Positions 5,618 to 25,888 of a stretch of DNA of 64,000 nt are shown one piece after another. The stretch's first letter is position 1; each line of letters begins with the position of its first letter. The stretch covers positions 2,319 to 66,318 of the forward strand of contig CAZVYE010000001.1 of the NCBI GenBank assembly GCA_964630895.1, in the 5' to 3' direction. The notes under the pieces are model-generated. The model saw only the letters and a program-made list of their open reading frames with translations. It did no database searches and had not been told where the DNA came from. Made by a program: the position numbers and the translations under genes. The stretch is from an uncultured Gammaproteobacteria bacterium (GTDB taxonomy: Bacteria; Pseudomonadota; Gammaproteobacteria; Xanthomonadales; SZUA-38).

Positions 5618-6887
5618 CCATCAAAAAGTATATGTCCGCCAGTAGTAACTGCAGTTCGGTCTCAAGTCGGCGAAGTTCTAACTCGAATTGATTGCTTTGC
5701 TTTCTTGCGTCAATCGGCGCGGTTGCCAATACCAAACCAGACTCATACGCATTTCGCTGTGCGGCAACCAGGTCTCGAGCTTGAGGCATCAACTGATCTT
5801 TATAGAGCTGGATTTGCATAGACAATTGGATGGCCTGTTCGCGCATTCCATGCCACTTGGCACGCAATTTTTGGTAGGTATCTTTTTGCAGAGCAAGCAC
5901 TTGATCTACACCCGCTGCCGCGGCTGCAATACGGTTATCTGTCTTGCGAGGACGCGCCCAGGGTAGATCCATGCGCACAGTCGCACTTAACAAATCAGGC
6001 TTATCGCGCCCCAATGGGCTGTCGCCAAATCGCTTGCCGTAGCCTAACTCCACAGTGTATCCGGATTTCGCTTCTGCCCGTGCCAGTTGGTAGGTCGATT
6101 GCGCGTGTTGCAACTCTGTCTCCACCACCCTCAACTGTGGGTGGTCAAGTAGCTGCTCGTCAGGTAGATCAACCAGCGCGGCTGCGAACGGATCAGGCCA
6201 GACGCTAGAGACGGGACGCAAAGCAGCATCACCTATCCATCGACTCAACCGCGCGCGACTGTCATGCTCCTGGGCCAAGAGCGAACTAAGTTGCGTAGCA
6301 ATCTTTGAACGTTCTAGTTGGGCAGCTAAAAGAGACGCCTGCTGAGCACTGCTGGTTTCAAGCAGAATCTGCCGGGTTTGAATCTCTTCATCGATCAACT
6401 GTTGCCTGGCGGACAATACGGTTTGCGTCATTTCTAGCCCAACAGTCTGCCAGTAAGCTCGGCGCACATCGTGCAGTATTTCTCGACGCTGTAGCTGTTG
6501 CCTGCTTCGCGCAATCTGCCCTTGATTGAGTGCAACCTCGGATCGCAAGGATCTTACGCCGCTGGCGGGAAAGCTTTGCGCCACGCCAACCTGGATACGA
6601 GTCATGTTTTCCTGATCCAGATCAAACGTGTCCAATGGCAAAGCCAGTAGACCGACGCTAGCCATCGGCTCGGGCAATTCTCCTGCCGCCACCGACTGAA
6701 ACTCATGCGTCCTTACTTTAGCGGCCAACGCGTCCAACGCTGCATTGTTATGTAAGGCCAATCGTTCAGCCTGCGCCAACGTCAATATGTTGCCAACGTC
6801 TCCGGCGGCATTTAAATCCAATGACCGGCTCTGCAAGGGGAGCCATAGAAAAATAATCAGTATCGTAAACAGCAACTGCGCACGCAT
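5601..6887 (-). CDS. TolC-family outer membrane efflux protein (CusC-like position)
   Basis: This roughly 428-aa protein has a signal peptide (MRAQLLFTILIIFLWLPLQS) and a long helical, Q/L/A-rich duplicated repeat architecture. It is the first pump gene of the operon. The ATG at 6887 is preceded by GGAG. No lipobox Cys is present. Confidence 0.8.
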   Translation of the reverse strand: MRAQLLFTILIIFLWLPLQSRSLDLNAAGDVGNILTLAQAERLALHNNAALDALAAKVRTHEFQSVAAGELPEPMASVGLLALPLDTFDLDQENMTRIQVGVAQSFPASGVRSLRSEVALNQGQIARSRQQLQRREILHDVRRAYWQTVGLEMTQTVLSARQQLIDEEIQTRQILLETSSAQQASLLAAQLERSKIATQLSSLLAQEHDSRARLSRWIGDAALRPVSSVWPDPFAAALVDLPDEQLLDHPQLRVVETELQHAQSTYQLARAEAKSGYTVELGYGKRFGDSPLGRDKPDLLSATVRMDLPWARPRKTDNRIAAAAAGVDQVLALQKDTYQKLRAKWHGMREQAIQLSMQIQLYKDQLMPQARDLVAAQRNAYESGLVLATAPIDARKQSNQFELELRRLETELQLLLADIYFLMGEQDA

Positions 6888-7009
6888 CGCACACTCCAAA
6901 AGCTCTATATTTCAAAAGATTAGCTGCGAAACGCAGAAACCACACAACATCTACAGTGCGACACTATCGGTGCACTTGATGTGGTTAGCGTTGCAGCGAC
7001 AATTTGAAA

Positions 7010-11298: not shown

Positions 11299-12306
11299 TC
11301 AAGGCCTATGAGAATTCAATCCCACAAAAGTGCCACCATTTCGTTCGGTCATCAAACGCATCAAGTTTGCAAAACGTTCAACCGATCTCTGCATGTTGGG
11401 TGGTGCAAGAAAATGCACTGGAAATCCAACCGCGTGGATGCGAACCATGCGCTCGCCTTCCTTGGTCTCTTTGTTAATCGTGTCAATGGTCGCCAAGACT
11501 TGCTCCACCGAGCCCCCAGAAAAATCGTCACCGAACACGTACACACTGATCTTCTTGTCTGGCTGGTAAAACGTCCGAATGGCCTTGTTAATTCCTTCTA
11601 CCGGGCTGGAATTGGAAAACGCATTCCAGGTTCGCATGCGTTCTACGATGGCGCGTCTGCGCCCCGGTGAGTCGGGAATCCAGGTGCCAGAGTAGCGAGA
11701 GAACATATACTGGCCCATGTCGTTCATGACCTGGATGCCCTTGACCTCGGGATACACCTCCAGGGTCTCGATCACTTTGTCCAACAACAACTGCCAGGCA
11801 TAGTTGTACATAGAGCCCGAAGTATCGATTACGAATATGACGTATTCACTGTCAATTGGAATTCCGCCAACTGTTGTGTCGCTCACGGCCCGACGAAAGC
11901 TCATCCGGGCTTGCGCCTCGTTGAGCTCTTGTTGCGCTCGTTTGAGCTGATTTTCTAATTTCGCAACCGCGTCTGGCTGCGGCCCGGCCACATCAAACTC
12001 GGACTTGATGGTTTCCATTAGACGGTTGAGCCGGGCGATCTTATCCTTGATTTGAGACAGTTGCTCCTGCTTACTGACCAAAGTGCGGTTCAGGATCTCG
12101 GTTTCTCCACGGATTTCAAACAGAGTTTCCTGGAGCTGCGCGACTAAACCACTTAGATCTTCCTGGGTCTGCTCCAGGCGCATGGGTTCTGCGGTCTTCG
12201 CCAAAACCAGCAGCAAGATAATTGCGCCAAAGCCACAACAGATACAGTCCAGAAAAGACAGGCTAACCTGCTCTACGCCCCGGCGACCGCGCTTCAGCAC
12301 GCTCAT
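11299..12306 (-). CDS. ExbD/TolR-like TM anchor + coiled coil + vWA-domain protein (paralog 2)
   Basis: The N-terminus is MSVLKRGRRGVEQVSLSFLDCICCGFGAIILLLVL: a basic tail followed by a single TM with an Asp. A heptad-rich segment follows (LVAQLQETLFEIRGETEILNRTLVSKQEQLSQIKDKIARLNRL), then a vWA domain with an intact MIDAS motif, VIFVIDTSGSM. An ATGA overlap joins it to the upstream gene, and GGAGG precedes the ATG. Confidence 0.8.
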   Translation of the reverse strand: MSVLKRGRRGVEQVSLSFLDCICCGFGAIILLLVLAKTAEPMRLEQTQEDLSGLVAQLQETLFEIRGETEILNRTLVSKQEQLSQIKDKIARLNRLMETIKSEFDVAGPQPDAVAKLENQLKRAQQELNEAQARMSFRRAVSDTTVGGIPIDSEYVIFVIDTSGSMYNYAWQLLLDKVIETLEVYPEVKGIQVMNDMGQYMFSRYSGTWIPDSPGRRRAIVERMRTWNAFSNSSPVEGINKAIRTFYQPDKKISVYVFGDDFSGGSVEQVLATIDTINKETKEGERMVRIHAVGFPVHFLAPPNMQRSVERFANLMRLMTERNGGTFVGLNSHRP

Positions 12307-13394
12307 GGCCAGTCCTCCGAGGGACTCATAAACGATCCGCCAGAAACAATCGCAAGCTTCCAATAGCTGCTTGCCGCCAGCGGATCGCCTTCCATGGGAA
12401 ATAAAATGACGTTGATGGGTATACCTGAAGGAATTTGTCGTACTGCCTGCTCCAGGAAATTTTGTCGCTGCTTGCTAGAAACAGCTTCCAGTCGATCAGC
12501 GGGCTCACGACCTTGCGTAGGCAGGCTGTCTATAATCAGAAAAACATTGTCTGGCAATGGATCCATCTCACGAATCTTTTCTGCCACCGCGTAAAACCTG
12601 GTGCCGTCTTGGGGTATAACCTTTCTTAGTGCCAGCACCGACTCATCGAGTAGTCGACCTTGTTCCACTGGTAACCATTGACCATCCGTATCTGGCAAGG
12701 CCGGCCTGGTCTGGGTATTAAACGTGTAAATCTGAAATTTGGAGTCGGTGGGAAACTGAGTAGTGATCCAGTCCACCGTGCGCAGCGCTTTCTGCCACTT
12801 TGCGGAACGCTTCTTTTGCTCATCCGGCAGATTGCGCCGACGGATGATATTTACGATGGTGTTATCAAGCATGGAGGCTGAGGCGTCAACAAACACCGCG
12901 ATATTACGACCGCCAACGCGCAGACCTGTCAAATACTGGCGATCTCCTTCGCCGTAAAATTGACGCACTCCCTGGCCGCCTTCCAGGTCTTCTTCAGATA
13001 ACTTGGCAAGTTGATCTTCTGTAGCCCGCAGTTCAGCTATAAGCTGGTTGATATGCTCCATTTTCGCAGCCGTCTCGTCTTCACGCTCCGATAGCTCTTC
13101 ACGATCGTCTTCATACTCGTTGAGCAGCCGTTCCGCACGGCCGTCCGCTTGGACAATTTCCGTTTCCAGCTCATTGAGCGCATTGAGCAGCTTGGTCTTG
13201 TTCAGCTCCTCAAGTTGCACCTCGGTTTCCAGCAGCGAAACTTCGCCACTAAGATCCGCGCTCATATCATCGGAACGTGTCTCGGTGGCGTGATTGATGA
13301 TGACAAAAAACAGAATAACAGCGCCAAAGCCGCAGGACATGATGTCGAGAAACGACAGGCTAAATATGGAGAAATCACGCTTCTTGCGTGCCAT
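12303..13394 (-). CDS. ExbD/TolR-like TM anchor + coiled coil + vWA-domain protein (paralog 1)
   Basis: The N-terminus is MARKKRDFSIFSLSFLDIMSCGFGAVILFFVI, which shares SLSFLD..CGFGA[IV]IL with the downstream paralog. An acidic coiled coil follows, then a vWA domain with IAVFVDASASM (DxSxS). The ATG at 13394 overlaps the upstream stop by 20 nt. The maximal ORF reaches a TTG at 13412. Confidence 0.8.
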   Translation of the reverse strand: MARKKRDFSIFSLSFLDIMSCGFGAVILFFVIINHATETRSDDMSADLSGEVSLLETEVQLEELNKTKLLNALNELETEIVQADGRAERLLNEYEDDREELSEREDETAAKMEHINQLIAELRATEDQLAKLSEEDLEGGQGVRQFYGEGDRQYLTGLRVGGRNIAVFVDASASMLDNTIVNIIRRRNLPDEQKKRSAKWQKALRTVDWITTQFPTDSKFQIYTFNTQTRPALPDTDGQWLPVEQGRLLDESVLALRKVIPQDGTRFYAVAEKIREMDPLPDNVFLIIDSLPTQGREPADRLEAVSSKQRQNFLEQAVRQIPSGIPINVILFPMEGDPLAASSYWKLAIVSGGSFMSPSEDWP

Positions 13395-14742
13395 GCGCCA
13401 TCTCCACTGCAATCAACATAAGTTCCAACGTTGGTGCAAGTTGCACTCTATCACCAGCCTTGACGTTAACTGCGTCTTCCACGGATTGCTGATTGACCTT
13501 CAACGGTCTGCCTGACGCATTCTCTAATACAATTGTGTCTCCTTTCAGGCTCAAACGCAGGTGCTTTGGTGCCAACACATCGCCATATTGGGACAGGTTT
13601 ACGCCGGGCGGCGCCACGTCGGAACCAACCCAAAGTCCATCTGCTCCTATAGGATAAGCAGTTGCACCATGCAAGACATGGGTCGGTTTCCTACCACCGC
13701 CGTCTTGTATTTGATCGGCATGTTTGACCAAGTCGGGCTGACCAAACCAGGGCAACTTATCGATAAATGCAACGCCTTCATCTTCCTGCTGCCGATCCAG
13801 ATACAGTCGCGACAACCCATGATTCTTTTCGGTGAGTTCGCACGCAATCAGCTCCAACTGGGGCACCTGACTGAGCGCCGCGCTGATACCCGGCAAGCGA
13901 GCGAGTGATTGGGGTAACAGCAAGACGGGCGCATTAGCCCCCGAGACTTCCTGGGCAACAAATGCTTCCAGCCTGCGCAGTACAACCTCACCGGCGCGGG
14001 TGAGACGCTCCGTGTCGATAGTGCTTGCGAACTGCTTGTCACCATTGTCAATCTTGATGGCGATTGAGTCCCAGTCCTGCCCTAGCTGCTCCCACTCCAG
14101 CAGTGCGTCGTATAGAGATTGCTCAGTGCCTGCGTCGTGCATGGGATCAAAGCGAGTTTCGCTGACAAATCTACGGGCCGCTGCGTGACTCCAGGTCTCC
14201 CGCAGTCGGGCCAGGCCCACGTCCCGGTTTGTTGCAATGCGATCCATGCTGAGCCACTGACTCTGATCCAGCCTGGCCAGCACCGCTTTGTGTAAAAACA
14301 AATCCAGACAGAAGATAGTGCGCCCGGGTAATGGTCTGGGTGCCAGCGCCACAGGCTTCGCAAGCACCGCCCTGACCGGCATCTCCAGTCGCTGACACAC
14401 ACCCAATAACAAACTGACTTGCTCATCCGAGAAATCCGCAGGAACTGTGAGCAATAGCGGATCATTCGGACGTTCCAGTCGCTCCCAGATGGATTCCAGG
14501 TGCAGATAGGCCAAATCCGCTTGGGTGGCGGCCGCGCGGTAGGAAGCGGTGAGACCAGTGCGGCCGAATCGATCCCAAAACTGACTTTCTGTGCGGGTTG
14601 GATCAAGCTTTGAAACCGCTTGCGCATCTAGCCCTATCTGCGCATGTCTGCCACGCAAATTGATAAACGCTGGGCTCTCCAGCAAAGTGTTGCCATCTCT
14701 GCGTGCTCGTACCCCTACATCCTGGATATCGATGATGAGCAT
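13375..14742 (-). CDS. Cytoplasmic protein with an Hsp70/actin-like (ASKHA-like) N-terminal region and an FHA-like C-terminal domain
   Basis: The N-terminus, LIIDIQDVGVRARRDGNTLLESPAFINL...IGLDAQAVSKLDPTRTESQFWDRFGR, follows the DnaK N-terminal pattern (GIDLGTTNS...TTPSVV...VG..A...NP.NT....KRLIGR), but the phosphate-1 motif is degenerate. The C-terminus, HVLHGATAYPIGADGLWVGSD...HLRLSLKGDTIVLENASGRPLKVNQQSVEDAVNVKAGDRVQL, resembles FHA. The domain calls were made by eye only. Confidence 0.55.
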   Translation of the reverse strand: MLIIDIQDVGVRARRDGNTLLESPAFINLRGRHAQIGLDAQAVSKLDPTRTESQFWDRFGRTGLTASYRAAATQADLAYLHLESIWERLERPNDPLLLTVPADFSDEQVSLLLGVCQRLEMPVRAVLAKPVALAPRPLPGRTIFCLDLFLHKAVLARLDQSQWLSMDRIATNRDVGLARLRETWSHAAARRFVSETRFDPMHDAGTEQSLYDALLEWEQLGQDWDSIAIKIDNGDKQFASTIDTERLTRAGEVVLRRLEAFVAQEVSGANAPVLLLPQSLARLPGISAALSQVPQLELIACELTEKNHGLSRLYLDRQQEDEGVAFIDKLPWFGQPDLVKHADQIQDGGGRKPTHVLHGATAYPIGADGLWVGSDVAPPGVNLSQYGDVLAPKHLRLSLKGDTIVLENASGRPLKVNQQSVEDAVNVKAGDRVQLAPTLELMLIAVEMAHGTQEA

Positions 14743-14745
14743 GGA

Positions 14746-15576
14746 TCAGTCTTCTCGCAGCTTGGAAATCAAATGAGCGTCTGCGTATTCCTGTGTATCC
14801 AGCACCAGACGTTCCTGCATGAGCTGGAGTTGGTGCATCAGAAACATCAGGAATATGCTCAACACCAAAGCAATAAACGTCGAGTTGAAGGCAACCCCAA
14901 GACTTTGGGTTACGCCAGAAATGTCTCCCTCCACTGCCTTGTGCGCCTGTGCAAGCGCCTCGCCGATACCGCGAACCGTGCCGATAAATCCAATGGATGG
15001 AATGGCCCAGGCAATATAGCGAGTCATGGCGAGCTCAGAGTCCAGTCGTTCGGACTCTGATTCACACAACTCCCGCACTGTGGTTGCCACACTCTGGATA
15101 TCCCGAGTAGACCGAAATCGATGCAGAGCGGTTAGCAACACGCGTGGCAACAAGAAACTGCGCTCGCGTTCGGGCAGCGCCTGAATGGGACGGGCGTATT
15201 CGCGACTGTCTTCTGGAAGTACGCTGATACCCTGCCCCACTGGTACCAACTCGCGTTCTAACAGATTACGCTCTCGATAAGCCTTAACTGCCTTGTAGGT
15301 CATGATCGCTAGCGCCCAAAACAGCAGGATAAAACACGCCTCCTGTTCGAAATCCCGGATCAAGACAAATACCGATCGCTCAGGAACATAATCCGGATCG
15401 GCTGCTACTGCGGCCTGCTGCATCGCAATAATAGCTGCCGCCTGCGGCCGAATGAGAGTCACGTAGACTGTATGCACCGCGACCGTAGAAAACAGCAAAG
15501 CAAAGAGCTGATAGACAAATTCCACTGGGAATCGCTTACTCATCAGTCCTGGGTTCCTTATCGTTGTTGTGTTCAT
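14746..15576 (-). CDS. MotA/TolQ/ExbB-family proton channel protein
   Basis: It has three or four TM segments. The C-terminal core, MTRYIAWAIPSIGFIGTVRGIGEAL...GVAFNSTFIALVLSIFLMFLMHQL, matches the MotA_ExbB signature (..P.lGllGTV.G). An alternative start lies at 15543 (MSKRF, preceded by AAGGAA). Confidence 0.85.
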   Translation of the reverse strand: MNTTTIRNPGLMSKRFPVEFVYQLFALLFSTVAVHTVYVTLIRPQAAAIIAMQQAAVAADPDYVPERSVFVLIRDFEQEACFILLFWALAIMTYKAVKAYRERNLLERELVPVGQGISVLPEDSREYARPIQALPERERSFLLPRVLLTALHRFRSTRDIQSVATTVRELCESESERLDSELAMTRYIAWAIPSIGFIGTVRGIGEALAQAHKAVEGDISGVTQSLGVAFNSTFIALVLSIFLMFLMHQLQLMQERLVLDTQEYADAHLISKLRED

Positions 15577-15578
15577 AA

Positions 15579-16010
15579 TTAAATGTCGTTAGGGAATGAA
15601 ATCGAGCGATCCTCAGAAATCTTCTCCGACGGTTCAAACCGTTCCATGGTGGCCTGCATTTCCTCAGTCAAAGCAGCATCACCATCTAGGTCGCCTTCCG
15701 CCGCGTCTAGCTCCAACCCTTGTTCAGCAGTTGTTTCCTCCACAACCGCCGATTCGTCCGCTGAATCAGCTTCTGACGAGGCTGCAGCAGGAGTAACCGG
15801 ATTTGAATTTGGCGCTGACTCTTGATCGGATTCCGAGGCTACGTCGCGACTTTGCTCTTCCGATTGCGCTTCCGTGGTTTGCGCGTCAGTCTGAGCAAGC
15901 GCCATTCCTATCCATCCAACGCCGCCTGCAATGATCAAGACCATTGACAGCGCTCGCCACGCTTTGCGCATTGCAATGATCTTGTGAATGGTTGGCTGAC
16001 TACTCTGCAT
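15579..16010 (-). CDS. Small anchored or secreted, highly acidic, low-complexity protein
   Basis: A hydrophobic N-terminal segment (WRALSMVLIIAGGVGWIGMALAQ) is followed by about 100 aa rich in E, D, S, A and T. The start is either 16010, which overlaps the upstream stop by 11 nt, or 15971. The gene sits immediately upstream of the ExbB-like gene with a 2-nt gap. Confidence 0.55.
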   Translation of the reverse strand: MQSSQPTIHKIIAMRKAWRALSMVLIIAGGVGWIGMALAQTDAQTTEAQSEEQSRDVASESDQESAPNSNPVTPAAASSEADSADESAVVEETTAEQGLELDAAEGDLDGDAALTEEMQATMERFEPSEKISEDRSISFPNDI

Positions 16011-18117
16011 AACGGGCCACCCGGAATCCAATATCGTCTGCTGGCTCCAGGCCTTCTTCGCGATACGCCCAGCGTAGTTCTGTGATGGTGCCAGAATGCC
16101 AGCTGGAACCACGTACCACGTGGGCTTCTCCACTGGCTACGCCGGTGGGATCAACTTCGATGCTGCCCAACGTCCCAGGGTGAATAACATACACATCATG
16201 CATCCATTCAGAGGCATTGCCGCCCAGGTCATAAAATCCAAGGGCGTCCGGACCAAAACTGCCCACTATGGCGGATGCTGCGTGTGCGTCCTGATAGATA
16301 CTCAGAGGCTGATTGACCAGGCCTGTTGCCTCCCGACCAGCATAGTTGCCAGAGTCTGCGGCTGGCGGCATGGATTTGCCCCATGGGTATCGAGTCGGTT
16401 GTGTCGACGAATTAGCATGATAACGGGCCACTACCGCCCACTCCGCTTCCGTCGGCAGACGATAACCCGTATTGAGTGGCTCAACTGCACGCATATTGCC
16501 ACTAGCATCCGCAGCATAAGCCAGTGGCAGGCCCTCTTTCTCACTTAACCAATTGCAAAACTGGGCTGCTTCATTCCAACTAATTCGCACTACAGGCTGG
16601 GTCTTTAGTGAGAGGGTCGATTTGCCCACAACGCCGCTGTCATGTTCGGCTCGAAATTCGGCAAACTGCTGATTGGTGACCTCATGTGTGCCCAGATAGT
16701 AAGGCCGCTTCAGCTCCACCTGACGCAGAAACTCATTGGCCCTACGCCCCTGTTCCCGACGCCCACTACCCAAGCGGAATATGCCACTTGGTTGAATGAG
16801 CTTGAGCGTATAACCATTTTTTGCGCGCCAGATTTCTGGTGTTTTCTGGGCCCGAACTTCCGCGTCGCTCAACATGGCAACGCGAATTTCCTGCTCATGA
16901 TCCGGTGTCGGTGTAACGGTGGTAATAAATTCTTGATAACCCGGCTTTCGCACCACAATGCGTTGCGGGAATGCGGCGAGGGCCAGCGTATCTCCAGTGC
17001 TGCCTCTTACCGTGCCATTTACAACAATCTCAGCGCCTTCGGGGCCACCTACCACTCGAACACGTCCTAATACAGGCTGCAACGGGATGGATATTTCCTT
17101 GTTATCGCCTTGCGCTACAGCAACGCTGCGCTCGGTACCTCGGTAGCCCGTCTTGTTTAATTGCAGGCGATATGTTTCATCCGGAGGCAGCGCCAGTTCA
17201 ATGGGGGTCTGACCCTGGTAGGTCCCGTTTACCATGACCGTAGCACCGTTAGGTTGGCTACTCACCTGGACCAAAGCATCTGCCACTATCAATTCAATAA
17301 GCGGCAGTTGGCGTGCTTCGCCCGCATTAACGCTCAGCGTTTGCTGCCAGGGCTTGTATCCGTCCAAGCGCACAAGCACTTCTCGCTCGCCTTGCATGAT
17401 GGGAGTCGTTAAGGGTGTTTGCCCAACATTCTGCTGGTCCACATAAACCGTTGCGCCTACTGGTTCTGTAATGATCTGCACATCGGACCAGGCCGGTTCT
17501 AAAGACATAATCAGCGATTGTTCCTCCCCACCTCCCGCAACTTCGAGCATTTGACGGGATTCCAAATAGCGTGGGGATCGCGCAACCAGCTCATATTCGC
17601 CTGGACGCAATTCCAGTCGCTTGATTGGTAGCTGGCCAACGCTTTCACCATCCACCCACAGCGCGACTGGATCTGTTATCGGGCTTTCTACATTGAGGTA
17701 GCCAGGCAACTTGATAAGTTCAAAGATAAACTCCTGGTCAGAGGCGCTGGTAACAGAAATGGACTCACGTAGCGGATAATAGCCCGCTTTGTTGGCTTGT
17801 ACTTCAAACTCGCCCGGTCTGAGCAACCATCGCTCACCCAGTTGTACATTCCAAATGCCGCCTTCTACATCTAGTGTTTCTGCCTGCGGTGTGGTCTGAA
17901 TCAGCACCGGGGTACCAGTGAACAGATACCAAGCAGCCGCCGCCAGGCCAAAAAGCACAAGAAACGTGGCCAAACCAAGGAGTTTAGGAGCTAGATTTCC
18001 TGCTCGTCGCGATCCCGCACTAGGTTCAAAGGGCTCCGGTTGGATACGACGATAATTGCCTTCGCTGGCAGCGTCGCGTTCGGATATTCCTTTTTCTTGA
18101 TCAATCTGTTCGGTCAC
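16000..18117 (-). CDS. Single-pass membrane protein with 4-5 PEGA repeats and a C-terminal FGE-sulfatase (SUMF1)-like domain
   Basis: The TM is LLGLATFLVLFGLAAAAWYLF. The repeats look like ITEPVGATVYVDQQNVGQTPL..., SSQPNGATVMVNGTYQGQTPI... and GGPEGAEIVVNGTVRGST.... The C-terminus has the FGE family motifs YYLGTHEVTNQQFAEF, RISWNEAAQFCNWL, GYRLPTEAEWAVVAR, LGGNASEWMHD and VVRGSSW. Confidence 0.8.
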   Translation of the reverse strand: MTEQIDQEKGISERDAASEGNYRRIQPEPFEPSAGSRRAGNLAPKLLGLATFLVLFGLAAAAWYLFTGTPVLIQTTPQAETLDVEGGIWNVQLGERWLLRPGEFEVQANKAGYYPLRESISVTSASDQEFIFELIKLPGYLNVESPITDPVALWVDGESVGQLPIKRLELRPGEYELVARSPRYLESRQMLEVAGGGEEQSLIMSLEPAWSDVQIITEPVGATVYVDQQNVGQTPLTTPIMQGEREVLVRLDGYKPWQQTLSVNAGEARQLPLIELIVADALVQVSSQPNGATVMVNGTYQGQTPIELALPPDETYRLQLNKTGYRGTERSVAVAQGDNKEISIPLQPVLGRVRVVGGPEGAEIVVNGTVRGSTGDTLALAAFPQRIVVRKPGYQEFITTVTPTPDHEQEIRVAMLSDAEVRAQKTPEIWRAKNGYTLKLIQPSGIFRLGSGRREQGRRANEFLRQVELKRPYYLGTHEVTNQQFAEFRAEHDSGVVGKSTLSLKTQPVVRISWNEAAQFCNWLSEKEGLPLAYAADASGNMRAVEPLNTGYRLPTEAEWAVVARYHANSSTQPTRYPWGKSMPPAADSGNYAGREATGLVNQPLSIYQDAHAASAIVGSFGPDALGFYDLGGNASEWMHDVYVIHPGTLGSIEVDPTGVASGEAHVVRGSSWHSGTITELRWAYREEGLEPADDIGFRVARYAE

Positions 18118-18150
18118 CAGTCGTCTCTTGCCTCTAAGCTAAAACATCGA

Positions 18151-20310
18151 TTAAACAGAATCCTGACATCGCAACTCAATTGGCTGCGTCGGCTGGTCGG
18201 TTCGCACCCAGAATTCCTTGCGCACATCACGATACCCATCGCGAGAAGCTACTACGGTGTAGCGCCCTGGCCGCAGGCTGAGCTGATGTGTGTCAAACTG
18301 CCCCAGACGGCCCACTTTATAGACCACCACATTGCAGCTGCTGTCGGAAATCAACTGCACTGTCTGAGGCTGTCGCGCCAGTTCCAACTCGCGATCAAGC
18401 TTCGCGATTTGTTCCCGAAGTTTAGGCCCTGGATTTGCCACTGACCGCGCCTGCTGCAGAAGCTTACTGGCTTCCCTGCGACCGGTGTCATGCCACCACT
18501 GCTCAGGCTCTCCTACGAACGCGGACAATTTTTTATCTAATTGGGCGCGCCGCTTTGCAATCTTCAACCCGTCCTGGGCAAATTTGAGATTGGGATCTTC
18601 CTGCAAGGCAGCCTGGTACTTACGAATGGCATCGTCCCAGCGTTCCGCAGACACGAGATTGGCTACGGACTGTCCGTGACTACGCACATTGGCTCGCTTG
18701 GCCCGTAGCTGCAACTCAAGAAGGGCCTCTTTCGGGGCGGTTGATTCGGGCCGTAATCGAGCGGCAAGCTGCAGCTGATGTCTGGCCGAAGGCCAATCGT
18801 TTGCGTGCAGTGCTGCCAGCCCTCGGGTCATTGCAGCAGTAAACTTCTGTTCTTCAATTTGCGCCGCCAACTGGTCACGCTGGGATACAAGCCCGGACAT
18901 CTGCGCATCAATTTCTGCGGCCCGGGTAAATGCTTGAAGCGCAGATTCCAGATCCCCCCCCGCAAGCGCCGCATTGGCCTCACTGATAAGTTTTAGAACC
19001 GCCGGCAGGCTTTCCGCTCGCGCCTTACCGCGCGTTGCCATTGGTGACTCTGGATTGATCGCCAACGCCAGGTCGAATGCTTTGTGCGCGGCATCCACGT
19101 TTTTACCGTCAAGTGCAGCAAACCCATTGCTGAGCACTTCCGACAACACGACGTCGGACAGCGCGTCGATCTCTTGAAGTTGCCGTAGCGCCTGGGTGTA
19201 AAACTCGGTGGCTTTTGAAAATTGTTGTGCCCTGAATGGTTCGTCACCCTGGGTCGCTAAAGCTCTGGCGGACTGAAATTGCTCGGGAGCCCACGAATCC
19301 ACCTGTCTGTCTTCCAGGTCAAGCTGCAATTGAATCAGCTCATCCAATACGGTTTCCGCGGCTTTCCGCTGGGCCAGCAAAAGCTCCAGATCGTAGGGTG
19401 TGCGCTCGTCAACCGCAGCTTTAGCCTCGTCGGCCACCACCGGTTCGGTGACAACTACCGCCGGAACCGGACTTGGTGGTTCTATCAGTGGCTGGACTTG
19501 CTGTGGCAGCCACCAAAGCAGTCCCATGCCCAACACCACCGCAAGCAGCAACAGACCGGGCAGCATAAACCAGCTACGACTGCGGTGCTCTCCAGCAGAT
19601 TGTGTTGGCCAAGCGCCGCCATCCTCTAGGTCGGAGGATGCCGCTATCGCAACTGCGTCATCTTCACCACGCTGAAGACGCAAGCGCAAATCTGCAATTT
19701 CCTGCTTACAACGACGAGCGTCCCATGCCTCGTCCTGCACCTTTTCAGCGGCGAGCTGCTGCCACCTGGTCACCATTTCTGGCGTTTCGATGTTACGGAA
19801 GCGATAACTGAGCCAGTCTAGCAAGCCCAACAAATCCGCTTTGGCAGAAATATTCCGGTGCAGACGCGGGTACAGTAAGCGCCAATCGCCACCCCGGCGT
19901 GAGATTAAGCTTTGGTGATCCACGCTACCGTGGGTTAGCCCTTCGGCGTGCATACTGATAAGCGCTTCTGCCACCCGAACGCCGCCAGACAAGATGCTGT
20001 CTACCGACTTCTCTACGCCTTCGTGTGGCTTATCAATCTCCCAGCTCAGCCAAACAAAGTCCGACTCCATCCCGACTTCTGCGGGAGACTTGAGCACCGG
20101 ATGCAATAGACTGGCGTAACTGTCAGCTTGCGATTTGAGTGCTGGCGCATCCGAGCCTTCGCAAGGGAATATCTGCAGCATAAACACTGCGCCATCCGAA
20201 GCGTGTGCCTGCCACAAGTACATACCCGCCTCAGCAAGCTGCTGTTTCCCCAAAACAAAACGCGATGCAAGGGTTTTGCCTTCAACAAGATTTTCCAGCA
20301 GCTTCGACAT
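18151..20310 (-). CDS. Kinase-like (predicted pseudokinase) N-domain + TM + TPR-like helical repeats + C-terminal PEGA-like domain
   Basis: The first 170 aa or so are laid out like a protein kinase but lack the catalytic motifs: AVFMLQIF at the VAIK position, and HAEGLTHGSVDHQSLI where HRDxKxxN is expected. The TM is WFMLPGLLLLAVVLGMGLLWWL. A long A/L/Q-rich repeat region follows. The C-terminus is LSLRPGRYTVVASRDGYRDVRKEFWV. Confidence 0.65.
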   Translation of the reverse strand: MSKLLENLVEGKTLASRFVLGKQQLAEAGMYLWQAHASDGAVFMLQIFPCEGSDAPALKSQADSYASLLHPVLKSPAEVGMESDFVWLSWEIDKPHEGVEKSVDSILSGGVRVAEALISMHAEGLTHGSVDHQSLISRRGGDWRLLYPRLHRNISAKADLLGLLDWLSYRFRNIETPEMVTRWQQLAAEKVQDEAWDARRCKQEIADLRLRLQRGEDDAVAIAASSDLEDGGAWPTQSAGEHRSRSWFMLPGLLLLAVVLGMGLLWWLPQQVQPLIEPPSPVPAVVVTEPVVADEAKAAVDERTPYDLELLLAQRKAAETVLDELIQLQLDLEDRQVDSWAPEQFQSARALATQGDEPFRAQQFSKATEFYTQALRQLQEIDALSDVVLSEVLSNGFAALDGKNVDAAHKAFDLALAINPESPMATRGKARAESLPAVLKLISEANAALAGGDLESALQAFTRAAEIDAQMSGLVSQRDQLAAQIEEQKFTAAMTRGLAALHANDWPSARHQLQLAARLRPESTAPKEALLELQLRAKRANVRSHGQSVANLVSAERWDDAIRKYQAALQEDPNLKFAQDGLKIAKRRAQLDKKLSAFVGEPEQWWHDTGRREASKLLQQARSVANPGPKLREQIAKLDRELELARQPQTVQLISDSSCNVVVYKVGRLGQFDTHQLSLRPGRYTVVASRDGYRDVRKEFWVRTDQPTQPIELRCQDSV

Positions 20311-20370: not shown

Positions 20371-21600
20371 CTAGCCGTCCTCGTCAGCCAGTGGCAATCC
20401 CACTTCGGCCGCATAAATTTGACGCAACAATTCACGCCATTGTCGATATTGGGCTTCCAGCGAACCATCCAGCTTAACTACTTCGCCCTCTACGTTGACC
20501 ACCAGCGGCTTCACCTCAGAATCAAAGGAAGCAGCTAGTTCGCGAAGCGTTTCACGGTGCAGCGCGGATTCTTTGTACGTGTCATAGCCCTGCTTAATTG
20601 CGCTTAGTCCACCTAACGCAGCTGAGGGTCCCACGACGTTACGCACAATAGGGTTGCTTGACTTAGCAGTGGCTGCCGCACCCCCAAGCACACCCAATAC
20701 GCCTGCCACGGTTCGCGCTCTGGCAGAACGTTTCAAGTCGGCAACCGCAAGCGTTTCCTGGTAACTGTATTGACGCCAGGACTGGTAAGAAGGGTCCATC
20801 TGTCGATAAAACGCACCGTACTGCTGGTCTAATGTGTCAATCACCAGATATTCGCTTTCCCGAATCCGATCGACACGCTGCAGCATCGGGTCGGTGTCGG
20901 CGGGGAGACGGTTAATGGCTACCTGTCCTTTGTCATTGATACTCAGATGATCGCCAAACGCATCAGGAGCAAGCTGAGCTGCGTACTTCAACTCGGAAAT
21001 AGTGCGGATTCTGGCGAGTTCTTGGGTTGTAAAGTCCTGTCTTGCTGCCAGCAGATCGTTCGCGATGCGGTTGTAAATGTCCTGGAAAGGATCGCCGGGG
21101 TAGTCAATGTCATCCCGATAAGCAAACTGTGTCGCAGTATCTTCGTAGGTTTCTTCAAGCCAAACCCGACCTGTCACGTCATAGGCCACCACGTCCAGCT
21201 CCATGGTAAAACCATCGGACTGAAGAATGGTTCCCGTCACTGTAATTTCGGCGGTAGGGTCTGGATCAGGCAATACGCGTACGGCTCCCCACTGATTGGT
21301 TTTCTCCAATGTATTCCGCAACACATAGGGCACATAACGGGCTTCGGCTTTGCGCACCTGTGGAAACACAGCTTCTTCTTCATCGGGTTCTGCTTCTTCA
21401 GTCACGCCCGGATTAAAAACCACTACGTTGACATCCAGCAGGACCTGCTCTTGCAACTGCTCCTCGGCCCGGATCGCCGAAACGGAATTGACCTTCTTGA
21501 CGCTATGAGACGTGCATGCCGCCAGCACCAATAAGAAAGCCACCATTGAGGCCACTCTAAAAGTGTTTGAACGGATGTTTCTATTGAAATAATCAACCAT
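20371..21600 (-). CDS. Lipoprotein of unknown function with a Gly-zipper-like C-proximal segment
   Basis: The lipobox is FLLVLAACTS. The mid region is IRAEEQLQEQVLLDVNVVVFNPG...ITVTGTILQSDGFTMELDVVAYDVTGRVW. The later segment VAGVLGVLGGAAATAKSS...GPSAALGGLSAIKQG looks like a glycine zipper. The start lies 2 nt after the upstream stop. Confidence 0.6.
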   Translation of the reverse strand: MVDYFNRNIRSNTFRVASMVAFLLVLAACTSHSVKKVNSVSAIRAEEQLQEQVLLDVNVVVFNPGVTEEAEPDEEEAVFPQVRKAEARYVPYVLRNTLEKTNQWGAVRVLPDPDPTAEITVTGTILQSDGFTMELDVVAYDVTGRVWLEETYEDTATQFAYRDDIDYPGDPFQDIYNRIANDLLAARQDFTTQELARIRTISELKYAAQLAPDAFGDHLSINDKGQVAINRLPADTDPMLQRVDRIRESEYLVIDTLDQQYGAFYRQMDPSYQSWRQYSYQETLAVADLKRSARARTVAGVLGVLGGAAATAKSSNPIVRNVVGPSAALGGLSAIKQGYDTYKESALHRETLRELAASFDSEVKPLVVNVEGEVVKLDGSLEAQYRQWRELLRQIYAAEVGLPLADEDG

Positions 21601-21602
21601 GA

Positions 21603-22640
21603 TTAGCCTACCGACTCTTTGTATTTACGGTACTCGTCCCACAATTTTTCTCTAAGAACAGGGTCCGACTCTCGCATTGCCGCTTCGCGTAATTGCCTTG
21701 CCACAACATCGTCATCGCTACCATCACCGACATCCTGAGGAACTCTTTGCTTGTCGCGAGTACTGTCACCGCCCTGCGAGATCCAACCAGGTGTACCACT
21801 GGCGTCATCACCTTGACCGGATGCGCCACCACCTGAACTTGACTGGCTATCACCATCTACCATGACGAGGCCGCCATCTTCTCCGGTTTGGTCGGACCCA
21901 CCTTCTAACTCGGATCCTTCGGCGCCGCTTGGAGACTCGGAGCCGCCTTCCATATCTTCAGGGATATCCGCTGAGGCCAGCACCGTGATTTGACGCGCCA
22001 TTTCTCCGTCATGGGTTTGCAGCGTTTCAAGCAAGCGTGCATCAAGTGATGCCACATCGCCTGACTCCGCTTCTTCTCCATCTTCGCCGCCGGCAGGTCC
22101 TCCACCAAGCTCAGCGAGCTCTTCAGATTCAGCGCCACCGCCTGCGGACCCGTCACCGCCGTCTTCACCACCACCCGCAGGTTCTTCAGCACCTTCTTCG
22201 CCTCCTCCACCCGCATCGGCAACTGCATCGCTCTCGGCCTGCGCGCCTGATTCGGGTTCGGGTTCTAGCACTTCTAACTCACTTTCGGCACCACTGGCAC
22301 CGGCCTCAGCACTGGCTGAATCGCTTTCAGAACCACTTGGAATTGGCACTGGGATAGGTTCACCTGTGCCGCTGCTTGGTCGTTGACTGCCCTGGCTGCT
22401 GGAAGAGCTACTCGATGAACTGCTGGAAGACTGTGAGCCACTCTGGGACTGCTGTCCTCGACTCCTTGACTGCGAACTGCTGGAACTACTCGAACTACTG
22501 GAGCTGGAAGAACTGGAGCTAGAGGTCGGAGAAGGTGGTGTTGGCATGCCCGAAGAACTACTCGGTGAACTCATGCATCCACTAAGAACCAGCATGAATG
22601 TGGCCACCATCACAATCAGCCATTGCCCTAAAGTACGCAT
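21603..22640 (-). CDS. Lipoprotein with an extreme poly-Ser tract, a long acidic Gly/Glu/Ser-rich disordered region and a short conserved-looking C-terminal helix
   Basis: The ATG at 22640 is preceded by GGAGG. The lipobox is MLVLSGCMSS. The poly-Ser run is SSSSSSSSSSSSSSSSSQSRSRGQQSQSGSQSSSSSSSSSSSSQ, followed by GGGEEGAEEPAGGGEDGGDGSAGGG.... The C-terminus is DDVVARQLREAAMRESDPVLREKLWDEYRKYKESVG. Confidence 0.6.
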   Translation of the reverse strand: MRTLGQWLIVMVATFMLVLSGCMSSPSSSSGMPTPPSPTSSSSSSSSSSSSSSSSSQSRSRGQQSQSGSQSSSSSSSSSSSSQGSQRPSSGTGEPIPVPIPSGSESDSASAEAGASGAESELEVLEPEPESGAQAESDAVADAGGGGEEGAEEPAGGGEDGGDGSAGGGAESEELAELGGGPAGGEDGEEAESGDVASLDARLLETLQTHDGEMARQITVLASADIPEDMEGGSESPSGAEGSELEGGSDQTGEDGGLVMVDGDSQSSSGGGASGQGDDASGTPGWISQGGDSTRDKQRVPQDVGDGSDDDVVARQLREAAMRESDPVLREKLWDEYRKYKESVG

Positions 22641-22916
22641 TTTTCTACCTCCAGCTCTTTTCAGGTCAGAAACTTGGGCTACCAGATTAGTCTTACTTAG
22701 ATAGACCCTCAAGAGTCAACATTGGTTGCACAAGCTTGAATTTGATTATGTACTATATTTTTCGTATATCAAGAATGCGCAGACAAATGCGCACTTTGGG
22801 CAGCGTGGTCGGAGCGACTATATTCATTCCTTAAAAACACCATTCGCTGCAACGAAAATGGTTTTTTGACGGTCTACGCGTATGATGATACGGCAAACAA
22901 TGTGAGGGGATTTTGC
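22641..22916. promoter_or_regulatory. Divergent intergenic region, presumed to hold promoters for the nine-gene operon (leftward) and the lipoprotein pair (rightward)
   Basis: This 276-bp non-coding gap separates divergent genes. It contains an AT-rich stretch, ttgaatttgattatgtactatatttttcgtatatcaag. I did not map specific -35/-10 boxes with any confidence. Confidence 0.4.
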
Positions 22917-23522
22917 ATGCTCCAATTTCGCCATTGTGGAATTGCACTTTTTCTACTGCTACTACTTGCAGGCTGCGGCGGCAAAGTAATTATCGACGAC
23001 CACTTTCCTCAGCCTGTGGTTGCGCCATTGCCCTACCGCGTTGGAATCTACTACCCACCAGAGTTCTCCAATTATCAATACCAGGACGAAGAGTCGCGCC
23101 TGACTTTTCAGCTAGGCCAGCGGCAAAAAATGCTGTTCGAGCAGGTCTTTGAGGCGATGTTTCTGCAGAAGGTGGTGTTAACCAGTGCCGTGGCGGACGC
23201 GGACGACCTTGATTTGATTCTAAGTCCAAAGCTTACGCAATATGCCTTCTTAACACCTACCGAGACCGCTACCGAGTTTTTTGCGGTCTCAATTAAGTAC
23301 CAAATACAGCTGTTTAATCCAGAGGGCGAGATGATCGCGTTTTGGCCCATGGTCGCTTACGGCAAGAGCCGCACCAAAATGATCAACAAGAATGAGTCTC
23401 TGGGTGAGGCCACCAGCGTTGCATTACGTGATGCGGCGGCAGCCATGGTGTCTCAGTTTCATACCGTATTAGCAAAAGAAGAATGGCGCAGCGCCAGCGC
23501 TGATCAACCGGAGGCATTATGA
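22917..23522 (+). CDS. Lipoprotein, unknown function
   Basis: The signal and lipobox are MLQFRHCGIALFLLLLLAGCGG. A 4-nt overlap with the next gene suggests translational coupling. The maximal ORF starts at 22866. Confidence 0.55.
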   Translation: MLQFRHCGIALFLLLLLAGCGGKVIIDDHFPQPVVAPLPYRVGIYYPPEFSNYQYQDEESRLTFQLGQRQKMLFEQVFEAMFLQKVVLTSAVADADDLDLILSPKLTQYAFLTPTETATEFFAVSIKYQIQLFNPEGEMIAFWPMVAYGKSRTKMINKNESLGEATSVALRDAAAAMVSQFHTVLAKEEWRSASADQPEAL

Positions 23523-24166
23523 GAACTATATTGGCATTATTGGCGGTGGCCATTCTATCCGGCTGTGTCACCTCCAGAGTGGAAGAATTTTTGGTGGAGC
23601 AACCTGTGCTAACCGGTGAAGACGCCATCGTTATTCTTACAAACAGGCAAGACGCCGTGGTTGAAACGGAGCGGACTTTCTCGGACTGCTTATATTCCGA
23701 ACTGCAAAAAACTAATGGCGATGTGGAAATAGTCTCGGAACGCGCATTCAAAGACGCTTTATTCCCCTGGTTTGAGCCTCGCCTCGCGCCGGCTCGCGCT
23801 GATGCCATTCCTGACCTTTTGAAGCGAGACGGGCTGTCACAACGAGTCGATGAGCTCAACGTGCGTTATCTGGTGTGGATTCACGGAGAATCTGAAGCGC
23901 GCAACAAACAAGGCATGATGTCGTGTACGTTAAGCCCAGCTGGCGGAGGCTGCGTGGGGGTCTTGAGCTGGGATAATGCATCCAATTATGAGGCATCTAT
24001 TTGGGATTTACGTAAAGGCGAATCCATGGGCGTGATTACCAGTGAAGCAACCGGAACGTCAGTGGTGCCGGCAATCGGCGTACCCATCCCCTTGATCGCC
24101 CGTACCAAGAATGCCTCGTGCAAGACTTTGGCTGATCAGCTCAGCTCCTCGCTATTTGGCGCTTAA
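23519..24166 (+). CDS. Lipoprotein, unknown function
   Basis: The signal and lipobox are MRTILALLAVAILSGCVTS. Its ATG overlaps the upstream stop (ATGA). Confidence 0.55.
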   Translation: MRTILALLAVAILSGCVTSRVEEFLVEQPVLTGEDAIVILTNRQDAVVETERTFSDCLYSELQKTNGDVEIVSERAFKDALFPWFEPRLAPARADAIPDLLKRDGLSQRVDELNVRYLVWIHGESEARNKQGMMSCTLSPAGGGCVGVLSWDNASNYEASIWDLRKGESMGVITSEATGTSVVPAIGVPIPLIARTKNASCKTLADQLSSSLFGA

Positions 24167-24258: not shown

Positions 24259-25743
24259 CTAGCGACTGTCCAATCCTCCCACCGCAATGCTGCCATAGTC
24301 TGGCGGCGGATCAGTGGGATAAACTCGACGTACGAGAAAGCTCTCTGTGGCAACAGCTTGCCCGTCGATAATTCTGGGTCGGAATCTGGCTTTTCTGAAG
24401 TTTTGCAGCGCGGCGGTTCTCAGGCTGGAGTTCAAATTACTGCCAACCACGCGAATGTCTTTTGGTCGACCGGTATCCAAAATATCAAACTCAAAGTCAA
24501 AATATACGTACCTACCGACGGTGGAGTAACCCATATATTCAACCGACAAATCCTGACCGGGGTCTATAAGCTGGGGTTCAGCAAAACGAACCTGCCAATC
24601 TACAGTAGCGTTGGCCGCTTCTTCACTATTGGCCAATTCCCAGGCCAACCGGTAATACCCCCAGGCATCCTGAATTTCGTTGAACAAAATGTACCAGTCA
24701 CCCATTTCCAAATGGGCCTGAATCTTCTCATCAACGGCTAGATCCGGATTAGCCTCCACGATCTCAATCAGCTCTTGCTGTGCCTGTAAGCCCTTGAGAC
24801 GGTCGAAGGGTTGCTCCATGAGGTAAGCGTTCGCGATGCCTCTGAGTCCATCAATCAGAAGGGGCGACTTGGGGCCCAACTCCTCCCGAATTACATCGTT
24901 TGACTTTCGATACAGAATCCTTCCCTGGCGATAGTTCTTTGTCGAAGTGTAATATTCCGCCAGTCGATGGATCGCAGGTACGGTCTCCACCGTGCCACGG
25001 CCAAATTCCATCTTGTGAATACGCATTGCCAGCAGCTGCAGGTCTTCCGCTTGCTCCCATTCTTCCTTGGCCGTGAAACTATCGGTCAACATCTCGATAA
25101 TGGGCAGCTGATCCAGACTGCTAACGCCATTTTGGCGATGGGTGATGTGCTGCGCACGCTGAAATGTCACAATGGCCTCGTCATGCAGATCGAGCTGCTG
25201 CAAGGATTGCCCCAAACCCACCAAGGGTTCGATCAAGCTAGGCGCAAATACACCTTCCACTGCTTCCAAAATCTCTACACTGTCTTCAAACTTTAAGCGC
25301 GCTTGAGCCGGTTCATTGTTGCTCAGAAACGCGCGGCCCCAGTCCTGCAGAATCTGCCCCGTTAATACCGCATCATTGTCTTCGGTTAATGCCGCTGCGC
25401 TGGCTGCCAATTCAATAGATTGCAGAGCCTCTTCATATTGGCCGTTCGCCATGTGCACGTCGTACATGCGCTTTGCTTCCAAGGCGTCAACGTGCTCGAC
25501 ACCAAGCGTTTCGCCAGCGAAAGGAGCCTGCAAATCCAAACCTTCAGGAGGTGGCTCAACCTCAACTTCTACATCTACTGCGGGCTCCGCATCGAATCCG
25601 GTTTGCGCACTGTCTTCCTGCGCATTTGCAAAGGAGAACGACACGCTAAATGCAATTGCGAGAGCCAGCGCAGAATGACGCGGCATTCGACTCGCTGCGT
25701 CAGTCTTTACTGGTAGAAACTGGGTGCCAGCGTTTTGTGCCAT
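24259..25743 (-). CDS. Secreted TPR-like repeat protein with a TonB C-terminal-like domain
   Basis: The signal peptide is ...ALALAIAFSVSFSFANAQ, followed by a helical repeat region. The C-terminus, VYFDFEFDILDTGRPKDIRVVGSNLNSSLRTAALQNFRKARFRPRIIDGQAVATESFLVRRVY, resembles TonB_C. The ATG at 25743 is preceded by GGAGGG. The track's maximal ORF starts with a TTG at 25761. Confidence 0.6.
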   Translation of the reverse strand: MAQNAGTQFLPVKTDAASRMPRHSALALAIAFSVSFSFANAQEDSAQTGFDAEPAVDVEVEVEPPPEGLDLQAPFAGETLGVEHVDALEAKRMYDVHMANGQYEEALQSIELAASAAALTEDNDAVLTGQILQDWGRAFLSNNEPAQARLKFEDSVEILEAVEGVFAPSLIEPLVGLGQSLQQLDLHDEAIVTFQRAQHITHRQNGVSSLDQLPIIEMLTDSFTAKEEWEQAEDLQLLAMRIHKMEFGRGTVETVPAIHRLAEYYTSTKNYRQGRILYRKSNDVIREELGPKSPLLIDGLRGIANAYLMEQPFDRLKGLQAQQELIEIVEANPDLAVDEKIQAHLEMGDWYILFNEIQDAWGYYRLAWELANSEEAANATVDWQVRFAEPQLIDPGQDLSVEYMGYSTVGRYVYFDFEFDILDTGRPKDIRVVGSNLNSSLRTAALQNFRKARFRPRIIDGQAVATESFLVRRVYPTDPPPDYGSIAVGGLDSR

Positions 25744-25888
25744 CAACACATATCCCTCCAATTCATGATTTTTTGTTAGGGCGTGAGCATAACAGTATAA
25801 ACAGCGCCTTCGTACGAATGTTGCCGTGCCCGCTTATGTCTTACTCCGTCAACTCCACACTAAAGAAAATTGCCATGAGACACCAATA

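Follow-up and report, generated by a model that had tools for sequence, protein, structure and literature searches.

A degenerate kinase-TPR protein and a cysteine-less PEGA-FGE protein encoded within a predicted TolQ-like/vWA motor operon

We analysed a 64,000-nucleotide stretch of DNA, hereafter the window, from an uncultured gammaproteobacterium of the Xanthomonadales lineage SZUA-38 (GenBank assembly GCA_964630895.1, contig CAZVYE010000001.1, positions 2,319 to 66,318), and focused on two adjacent genes encoding membrane proteins of 719 and 705 residues. The former carries a kinase-like domain in the cytoplasm, while the latter combines PEGA repeats with a domain of the formylglycine-generating enzyme (FGE)-sulfatase fold. 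Judging from their sequences, we hold with high confidence that both proteins are catalytically dead, and with equally high confidence that they belong to an operon rather than forming a stand-alone module. We consider it probable that the pair provides non-catalytic structural or adaptor subunits, anchored in the inner membrane, to a proton-driven envelope machine of the TolQ/ExbB type, in which two vWA proteins encoded in the same operon would act as the 'B' subunits. Our confidence is moderate that the pair bears the traces of a fossilised threonine-phosphorylation switch, and low as to its exact mechanical role.

Both genes lie on the minus strand and are separated by 33 nt. The 719-residue protein (18151..20310) is predicted from its open reading frame (ORF), its homologues and a full-length AlphaFold2 model to be bitopic, with a pseudokinase domain, a transmembrane helix, a TPR solenoid and a PEGA-like beta-sandwich. 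The 705-residue protein (16000..18117) is likewise predicted to be bitopic, and its ORF and Pfam matches delineate a short cytoplasmic tail, a transmembrane helix, five PEGA-type repeats and a cysteine-less FGE-sulfatase-fold domain. An earlier note made from the DNA letters alone had described the pair as single-pass proteins with repeated periplasmic modules; our predictions agree on the topology and on the periplasmic beta-sandwich repeats. Both ORFs lie where that note had placed them and every motif it quoted is present, including, in the 705-residue protein, GGPEGAEIVV at residue 357, RLPTEAEWAVVAR at 553, GGNASEWMHD at 632, VVRGSSW at 667 and the C-terminal segment HSGTITELRW... at 674.

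Catalytic sites and periplasmic parts of the pair

The cytoplasmic domain of the 719-residue protein (residues 1-225; 19636..20310, minus strand), delimited by hhalign and a MAFFT alignment, escapes direct searches. It matches nothing in Pfam up to E = 10, a BLASTP comparison with one orthologous kinase came back empty, phmmer against PDB found nothing, and phmmer against 1.8 billion representative proteins retrieved a single relative, P0133 (E = 2.8e-4). Homologues retrieved through the TPR and C-terminal part of the protein often have a true Pkinase domain at the corresponding N-terminal position. P0133 itself matches Pfam Pkinase (E = 2e-5, under the gathering score) and APH, and the orthologue from the related locus L003 matches the kinase StkP (E = 0.002) and retains VVHGNLGPQ...LLADFAI. 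Aligned alone with 12 orthologous intact kinases, the window domain reached an hhalign probability of 76% (E = 2e-5); together with P0133 and the L003 orthologue it reached 98.9% (E = 4e-17), with the register unchanged. A profile built from these three pseudokinases and run against 5.8 billion proteins returned a single sequence, a bona fide Ser/Thr kinase (E = 1.7e-5). Descent of the window domain from the Ser/Thr kinase of the orthologous proteins is well supported by these profile comparisons.

While the catalytic Lys, the HRD Asp, the Asn and the DF of DFG are invariant or nearly so in the orthologous kinases, each of them is replaced in the window domain. The VAIK Lys becomes Q46 (AVFMLQ; Arg in the two relatives), HRD becomes H127-G128-S129, the catalytic Asn becomes S134 (HGSVDHQS) and DFG becomes Y147-P-R. 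The glycine-rich loop is degenerate (LAEAGMYLW), and the activation segment is missing, leaving a gap of ~30 residues relative to the orthologues in the MAFFT alignment. The hhalign register is the one that had been drawn by eye in the earlier note (Q46, S129, S134, no DFG), whose claim that the kinase-like domain lacks its catalytic signatures is borne out. An AlphaFold2 model of this domain alone has a confident kinase-type N-lobe and a low-confidence C-lobe and matches protein kinases only; in the full-length model the domain has no confident structure.

Identity among the three pseudokinase lineages is 25-30% over more than 200 aligned residues of the N-domain, compared with 37-46% in the remaining, periplasmic part of the 719-residue protein, 50% in the PEGA-FGE protein and ~79% in the MotA-like protein of the operon, making the N-domain its fastest-evolving part. 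Its frame of ~245 codons is nonetheless open in all three lineages, which share an HP motif, an AEAL..H helix, an HG motif and a D..G..W helix. Because the frame stays open and these core positions are conserved despite the divergence, the pseudokinase fold may remain under residual constraint, for docking or dimerisation.

Bacterial pseudokinase families have been documented (Atlas of bacterial STKs, bioRxiv 10.1101/2025.01.12.632604). The window domain resembles them in having a Hanks-type fold that lacks the VAIK Lys, the HRD Asp and the DFG Asp, with an activation-loop deletion as in ActPs3, and differs in being too diverged for Pfam Pkinase; a catalogue built from Pkinase-homologous sequences would probably miss it. 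The three gammaproteobacterial lineages found here add a small bacterial pseudokinase clade that escapes standard Pkinase profiles.

The FGE-sulfatase-fold domain of the 705-residue protein (16003..16791, minus strand) is recognised without difficulty. Pfam places PF03781 at residues 443-702 (E = 1e-37, 130 bits for a cut-off of 23), alongside PEGA (E = 5e-47). Aligned with human SUMF1 (E = 2e-14), the domain has a two-residue gap at Cys336 and an Ile opposite Cys341; C521 is the only cysteine of the whole protein. The catalytic pair is missing in all 25 aligned family members, which do share ~40 invariant positions elsewhere in the domain. Since the absence is common to the whole PEGA-FGE family, which spans at least 120 clusters at 90% identity and has at least 584 matches in species-representative genomes, the loss of the cysteines is not a local oddity. 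The domain thus shares with SUMF1 its fold and a conserved NxxGNxxEW-type motif, and differs from it in lacking both catalytic cysteines and in having a PEGA stalk and membrane anchor attached. The absence of the paired cysteines had also been read from the sequence before, and both the SUMF1 and the family alignments confirm it. Proper alignment had been put forward as the check on whether either protein is truly inert, and across the two domains it reveals neither an intact catalytic Lys, Asp or DFG nor an intact cysteine pair.

Members of PF03781 that are not FGEs, such as PorK/GldK and PvdO, are generally regarded as devoid of FGE chemistry, and a catalytically inert FGE-like domain is nothing out of the ordinary within this fold. 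Apart from true FGE, its closest named relatives are PorK/GldK, the best of them in NCBIfam and PDB, and PvdO, even though the NCBIfam scores are far from the cut-offs (GldK, 80 bits against 350; PvdO, 47 against 500; EgtB and SenA weak). PorK/GldK is a non-catalytic FGE-fold protein and a structural periplasmic subunit of an envelope machine driven by the proton-motive force, the type IX secretion system (T9SS). PorK is however a lipoprotein without PEGA repeats, and no other T9SS genes are present at the locus. Databases name the relatives of the domain 'SUMF1/EgtB/PvdO family nonheme iron enzyme'.

Between the membrane and the FGE-fold domain, the 705-residue protein has a predicted transmembrane helix at residues 46-66 (17920..17982; LLGLATFLVLFGLAAAAWYLF) followed by a PEGA repeat region at residues 70-418 (16864..17910, minus strand), in which a segment-wise Pfam scan distinguishes three clear and two degenerate repeats. 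The clear ones match PF08308 with E-values of 3e-16, 3e-15 and 2e-9 (59, 56 and 38 bits; cut-off 20.8), and the degenerate ones with 0.002 and 0.075 (18 and 13 bits). Of the four to five copies counted previously, three therefore stand above threshold and two more are only weak matches. PEGA has been treated as a peptidoglycan-associating module (PMC7159879), which would fit a role as a stalk. The N-terminal tail preceding the helix (residues 1-45; 17983-18117) contains an IxPxxFxP motif (RIQPEPFEP) that is nearly invariant in both the FHA-bearing and the FHA-less forms of the protein described below, and is a candidate docking site.

The 719-residue protein crosses the membrane at residues 247-268 (19507..19572; hydrophobic stretch WFMLPGLLLLAVVLGMGLLWWL; helix 251-266 in the AlphaFold2 model). 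Most of its periplasmic part, ~340 residues, is a TPR-type all-alpha solenoid (residues 305-646; 18373..19398, minus strand; Pfam TPR_2, E = 1e-12), modelled with a predicted local distance difference test score (pLDDT) of ~90 and matched by Foldseek to the TPR domains of OGT and P58IPK. The earlier note had recognised the kinase-like part of this architecture and overlooked the solenoid. A seven-strand PEGA-like beta-sandwich closes the protein (residues 649-713; 18172..18366, minus strand; pLDDT 85-90) and is strongly conserved in sequence alignment. Run on the whole protein, Pfam finds nothing beyond the TPR repeats and, weakly, a CarboxypepD_reg-like C-terminus; segment-wise, this end matches CarboxypepD_reg (E = 1.7e-4) and PEGA (E = 0.012, 16 bits, under the 20.8-bit cut-off). 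The single PEGA repeat formerly assigned to this protein is thus right as to a PEGA-like sandwich, but falls below the PEGA cut-off.

The operon, its predicted motor genes and the kinase-FHA layer

We queried the ORFs of 80 related loci with the window proteins. The gene order is kept in ~60 loci or species genomes: a Ser-rich lipoprotein, a lipoprotein of 400 residues, the TPR protein, the PEGA-FGE protein, a small protein, a MotA/TolQ/ExbB-like protein, a protein of ~450 residues (Hsp70-like/FHA, usually but not always present) and two vWA proteins, to which many loci add two small lipoproteins and a TPR-TonB_C protein. Within this cluster of ~10-12 genes, the pair is the invariant upstream part and its two genes are always adjacent. 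The cluster occurs, among other taxa, in Pseudomonadales/Cellvibrionales, Woeseiaceae, Steroidobacteraceae, Arenicellales, Desulfobacterales, Acidobacteriota, Thermoanaerobaculales, Opitutales, Nitrosomonadaceae and Sneathiella. It lies on the chromosome, and its flanks (BipA, patatin and an M48 peptidase) are shared with related genomes. The pair had been proposed to be an inert sensor or scaffold module; while both folds indeed appear catalytically dead, the module is not self-contained but part of a predicted motor operon.

The predicted motor genes lie downstream of the pair on the same strand. A channel subunit of the MotA/TolQ/ExbB family (14746..15576; Pfam MotA_ExbB, E = 7e-15; TolQ, E = 2.5e-6) is followed by a cytoplasmic protein of 455 residues (13375..14742), which profile searches against PDB and motif comparison resolve into a weakly Hsp70 nucleotide-binding-domain-like N-terminal part and a degenerate C-terminal FHA domain (EmbR FHA, E = 2.7e-6; SSB1, E = 7e-4). 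Next come two vWA paralogues (12303..13412 and 11299..12363, both on the minus strand) with the same architecture in alignment: a TolR/ExbD-like helix with an invariant Asp (SFLDIMSCGFGA in the first), a coiled coil and a vWA domain with the metal ion-dependent adhesion site (MIDAS) motif DxSxS. Across 32 sequences of the two paralogues, both the Asp of the N-terminal helix (SFLD..CGFGA) and the MIDAS motif are invariant. There is no TolR/ExbD gene in the cluster.

This arrangement resembles a predicted family of 5:2 motors, TPH-vWA/TolQ-like, from Proteobacteria and Verrucomicrobia (PMC12204202, Mol Biol Evol 2025). Compared with the family as that paper describes it, the cluster has the expected tolQ-like gene, no tolR or exbD, and two heterologous vWA genes encoding an Asp-bearing helix. 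Term searches of the main text of the paper return no mention of PEGA, FGE/sulfatase-fold or kinase components; as far as that text goes, the pair and the kinase/FHA layer therefore appear to be an undescribed part of the cluster. A full-text literature search combining PEGA, FGE-sulfatase and MotA found no paper on the cluster.

The TPR partner exists in several forms. It has only a short cytoplasmic tail in ~42 of ~64 loci, an intact kinase domain in 15, and a degenerate one in the window, in L003 and in L085 (P0133). Since most family members have no kinase domain, kinase signalling appears to be an accessory layer, of which the window would carry a decayed version. Where the kinase is intact, the PEGA-FGE protein has an additional N-terminal domain of ~110 residues, on its cytoplasmic side, that is FHA-like (Pfam, E = 0.003; Ki-67 FHA, E = 8e-4, profile against PDB). 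This extension is present at 14 intact-kinase loci and absent at one; among loci with the short tail and no kinase, it is present at four and absent at 42 (Fisher's exact test, p = 2e-9, with loci counted as independent). The FHA domain of the Hsp70-like protein follows the same trend, as its canonical phosphothreonine-binding signature SR.H...YGT..N is found at 10 of 11 loci with a kinase, 1 of 34 without one and none of the three with a pseudokinase (p = 4e-8). A regular-expression match to this signature in L003 was discarded as false, having fallen on an upstream SPTH motif.

The window clade combines a dead kinase with a PEGA-FGE protein that lacks the FHA domain and an Hsp70-like protein that has lost its FHA signature. 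A neighbour-joining tree of the PEGA-FGE proteins places the window, L003 and L085 in one clade nested among kinase/FHA-bearing systems. The pattern is coherent with regulation of the machine by a kinase-FHA layer within one large branch, all three elements of the layer being dead or gone in the window clade.

The kinase-bearing relatives are reminiscent of the TagQRST-PpkA-PppA-Fha1 pathway of the P. aeruginosa H1 type VI secretion system (H1-T6SS), with which they share a bitopic Hanks kinase, FHA domains, a periplasmic FGE-fold protein, vWA domains and lipoproteins, as well as the principle of an envelope signal gating a machine via phosphothreonine and FHA. TagR has the FGE fold, and PpkA has a periplasmic vWA domain. 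In the present cluster, by contrast, vWA domains belong to the motor subunits, whereas the kinase protein has TPRs in their place; the window itself, moreover, encodes a dead kinase, and its FHA readers have either degenerated or disappeared. No T6SS component is encoded by the 12 genes of the cluster or by those flanking it, and we rejected membership in a T6SS, as the locus has neither T6SS nor PP2C genes. The likeness to PpkA-TagR pointed out by the earlier note is thus a fair analogy, in that kinase and FHA occur in orthologous loci, but it does not extend to a T6SS at this one.

Possible roles of the pair

We propose that in the ancestor of the window clade the machine was gated by a PpkA/Fha-like threonine-phosphorylation switch, which would since have become fossilised, with the pseudokinase fold kept for docking or dimerisation in the cytoplasm. 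The pair would then do its work in the periplasm. The PEGA stalk might span or bind the cell wall, the FGE-fold head might bind a ligand rather than modify one, and the TPR solenoid might organise the lipoproteins of the operon; together, the three could couple a rotary TolQ-like/vWA motor to the outer envelope.

A bolder version, which we put forward as a tentative possibility, is that the PEGA-FGE and TPR proteins form the periplasmic stator/adaptor of a new type of rotary, proton-driven force transducer, made of a TolQ-like pentamer and a vWA heterodimer, and switched on and off in many lineages by a eukaryote-like Ser/Thr kinase acting through two FHA readers. If this were the case, threonine phosphorylation would for the first time be seen to gate a 5:2 motor, and the window clade would amount to a natural experiment on the 'kinase-dead' state, with the pseudokinase kept as a constitutive scaffold. 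The cluster in any case bridges bacterial Hanks-type kinase/FHA signalling and the TolQ-like/vWA motor family, which have so far been described separately. The series leading from loci with a live kinase and two canonical FHA readers, through those with the kinase dead and its readers degenerate, to those lacking a kinase altogether provides testable interaction predictions and a handle on the regulation of the motor.

A serious rival, although a rather unlikely one in our estimation, is that the N-domain is purely a relic, functionless and heading for deletion, with the window form as an untrimmed intermediate. It would account for the absence of the domain from ~42 of ~64 loci, the region being reduced to a tail of 30-60 residues in most relatives, for the fastest rate of evolution in the operon (25-30% identity), and for the state of the window copy, the most eroded of the three and sub-threshold against a hidden Markov model (HMM) of the orthologous kinases; both FHA partners are also degenerate or absent. 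What it explains poorly is a frame of ~245 codons kept intact in three lineages although even a well-conserved neighbour is only 50% identical among them, and the core structural positions (HP, AEAL..H, HG, D..G..W) that they have in common, since at such divergence an unconstrained sequence would be expected to be unalignable and interrupted. The opposite idea, that the pair is an active receptor whose kinase-like domain performs non-canonical chemistry such as atypical phosphotransfer or AMPylation upon binding of a periplasmic ligand at the FGE-like or TPR parts, seems very improbable to us. The architecture is that of a receptor kinase, the orthologues are live kinases, and some pseudokinases are known to keep activity (discussed in bioRxiv 10.1101/2025.01.12.632604). 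Here, however, other residues stand in for the Lys, the HRD Asp, the Asn and the DFG Asp, neither the glycine-rich loop nor the activation segment survives, and the FHA readers that accompany the live kinases are missing or degenerate in the window.

Chemistry might instead reside in the periplasm, if the FGE-fold domain were an enzyme of another kind (PvdO-like oxidation, or modification of a glycan or peptide) acting on an envelope substrate delivered by the machine. The nonheme iron enzyme names of its relatives, the ~40 invariant positions and the weak NCBIfam matches to PvdO, EgtB and SenA lean this way, but these scores are far under their cut-offs, PorK/GldK, the nearest relative with a name, is a structural protein of the T9SS ring, and EgtB-type enzymes bind their iron in a DinB domain, of which the 705-residue protein has none; we judge this unlikely. 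Finally, the cluster could be a Zorya-type anti-phage defence system, where effectors are coupled to a MotA-like channel, with the pair as its sensor. Apart from a weak ZorA match of the MotA-like protein (E = 5e-4), PADLOC reported nothing else, no nuclease or other effector genes are present, the cluster occupies the same chromosomal place in related genomes, between the BipA, patatin and M48 peptidase flanks, and it is found in single copy across ~60 species with a vertical-looking phylogeny. As PADLOC finds no defence system, we rejected this candidate, which we regard as barely conceivable.

Several points count against the structural/adaptor reading and the phosphorylation history attached to it. 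Among the three pseudokinases, the window N-domain has degenerated furthest and falls below the default thresholds of the orthologue-kinase HMM, so that its assignment as a kinase leans on two intermediates. The pLDDT of its AlphaFold2 model is 56 and kinases were part of the input alignment, making its kinase matches partly circular. The Fisher tests ignore phylogenetic non-independence, the neighbour-joining tree has no support values, and gene starts are those of the longest ORFs. None of the 12 genes of the cluster, nor any flanking gene, encodes a PP2C, although kinase-bearing loci were not systematically searched for one. That PEGA would bind peptidoglycan, and the FGE fold a ligand, is drawn from general knowledge, and the putative role of the machine derives from computation for all its members.

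Other genes of the cluster and its surroundings

Directly upstream of the 719-residue protein gene lies that of a lipoprotein-like protein of 409 residues (20371..21600, minus strand), which belongs to no Pfam family and is recognised by synteny across ~60 loci. It is preceded by the first gene of the operon, identified from its ORF and synteny (21603..22712, minus strand), whose lipoprotein-like product is Ser-rich, acidic and nearly all of low complexity, with long poly-Ser runs followed by a strongly acidic region rich in Gly, Glu, Asp and Ser. Further upstream, a secreted protein with TPR and TonB_C domains is encoded on the same strand (24259..25761; Pfam TPR_12, E = 8e-18; TonB_C, E = 5e-8), a placement supported by synteny in Pseudomonadales-type loci. 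Its TonB_C domain and its synteny with the cluster hint at a TonB-like contact between the machine and an outer-membrane partner.

Between this gene and the operon, two small lipoprotein genes stand on the plus strand (22866-24166), divergent from the operon. In most other genomes their homologues are found on the operon strand, downstream of the second vWA gene, and they have thus been relocated within the cluster.

At the 3' end of the PEGA-FGE gene, the ORF listed at 15579..16133 (minus strand, 184 residues) overlaps that gene by 134 nt. Its true start is probably an internal Met (MRKAWRALS...), which would yield a small acidic transmembrane or secreted protein. A small gene is also found at this position in L002, L003, L084 and L085, with products of 88-143 residues elsewhere.

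In the kinase-bearing relative L042, 4.5 kb are inserted between the PEGA-FGE and MotA-like genes (12335-16645). We ruled out that this insertion supplies a phosphatase, as it consists of an unrelated ppx/ppk pair (exopolyphosphatase and polyphosphate kinase). L059, a 10-kb high-GC contig from an assembly labelled 'Nostoc favosum', also carries the cluster in its kinase/FHA form; it groups with proteobacterial loci in the tree and is probably a contaminant in a cyanobacterial assembly. In the window itself, an unrelated CusCBA-type heavy-metal efflux operon of the resistance-nodulation-division (RND) class lies downstream of the cluster (1252-6899, minus strand) and encodes an AcrB-family pump, an HlyD_D23/HMBD adaptor and an OEP protein.

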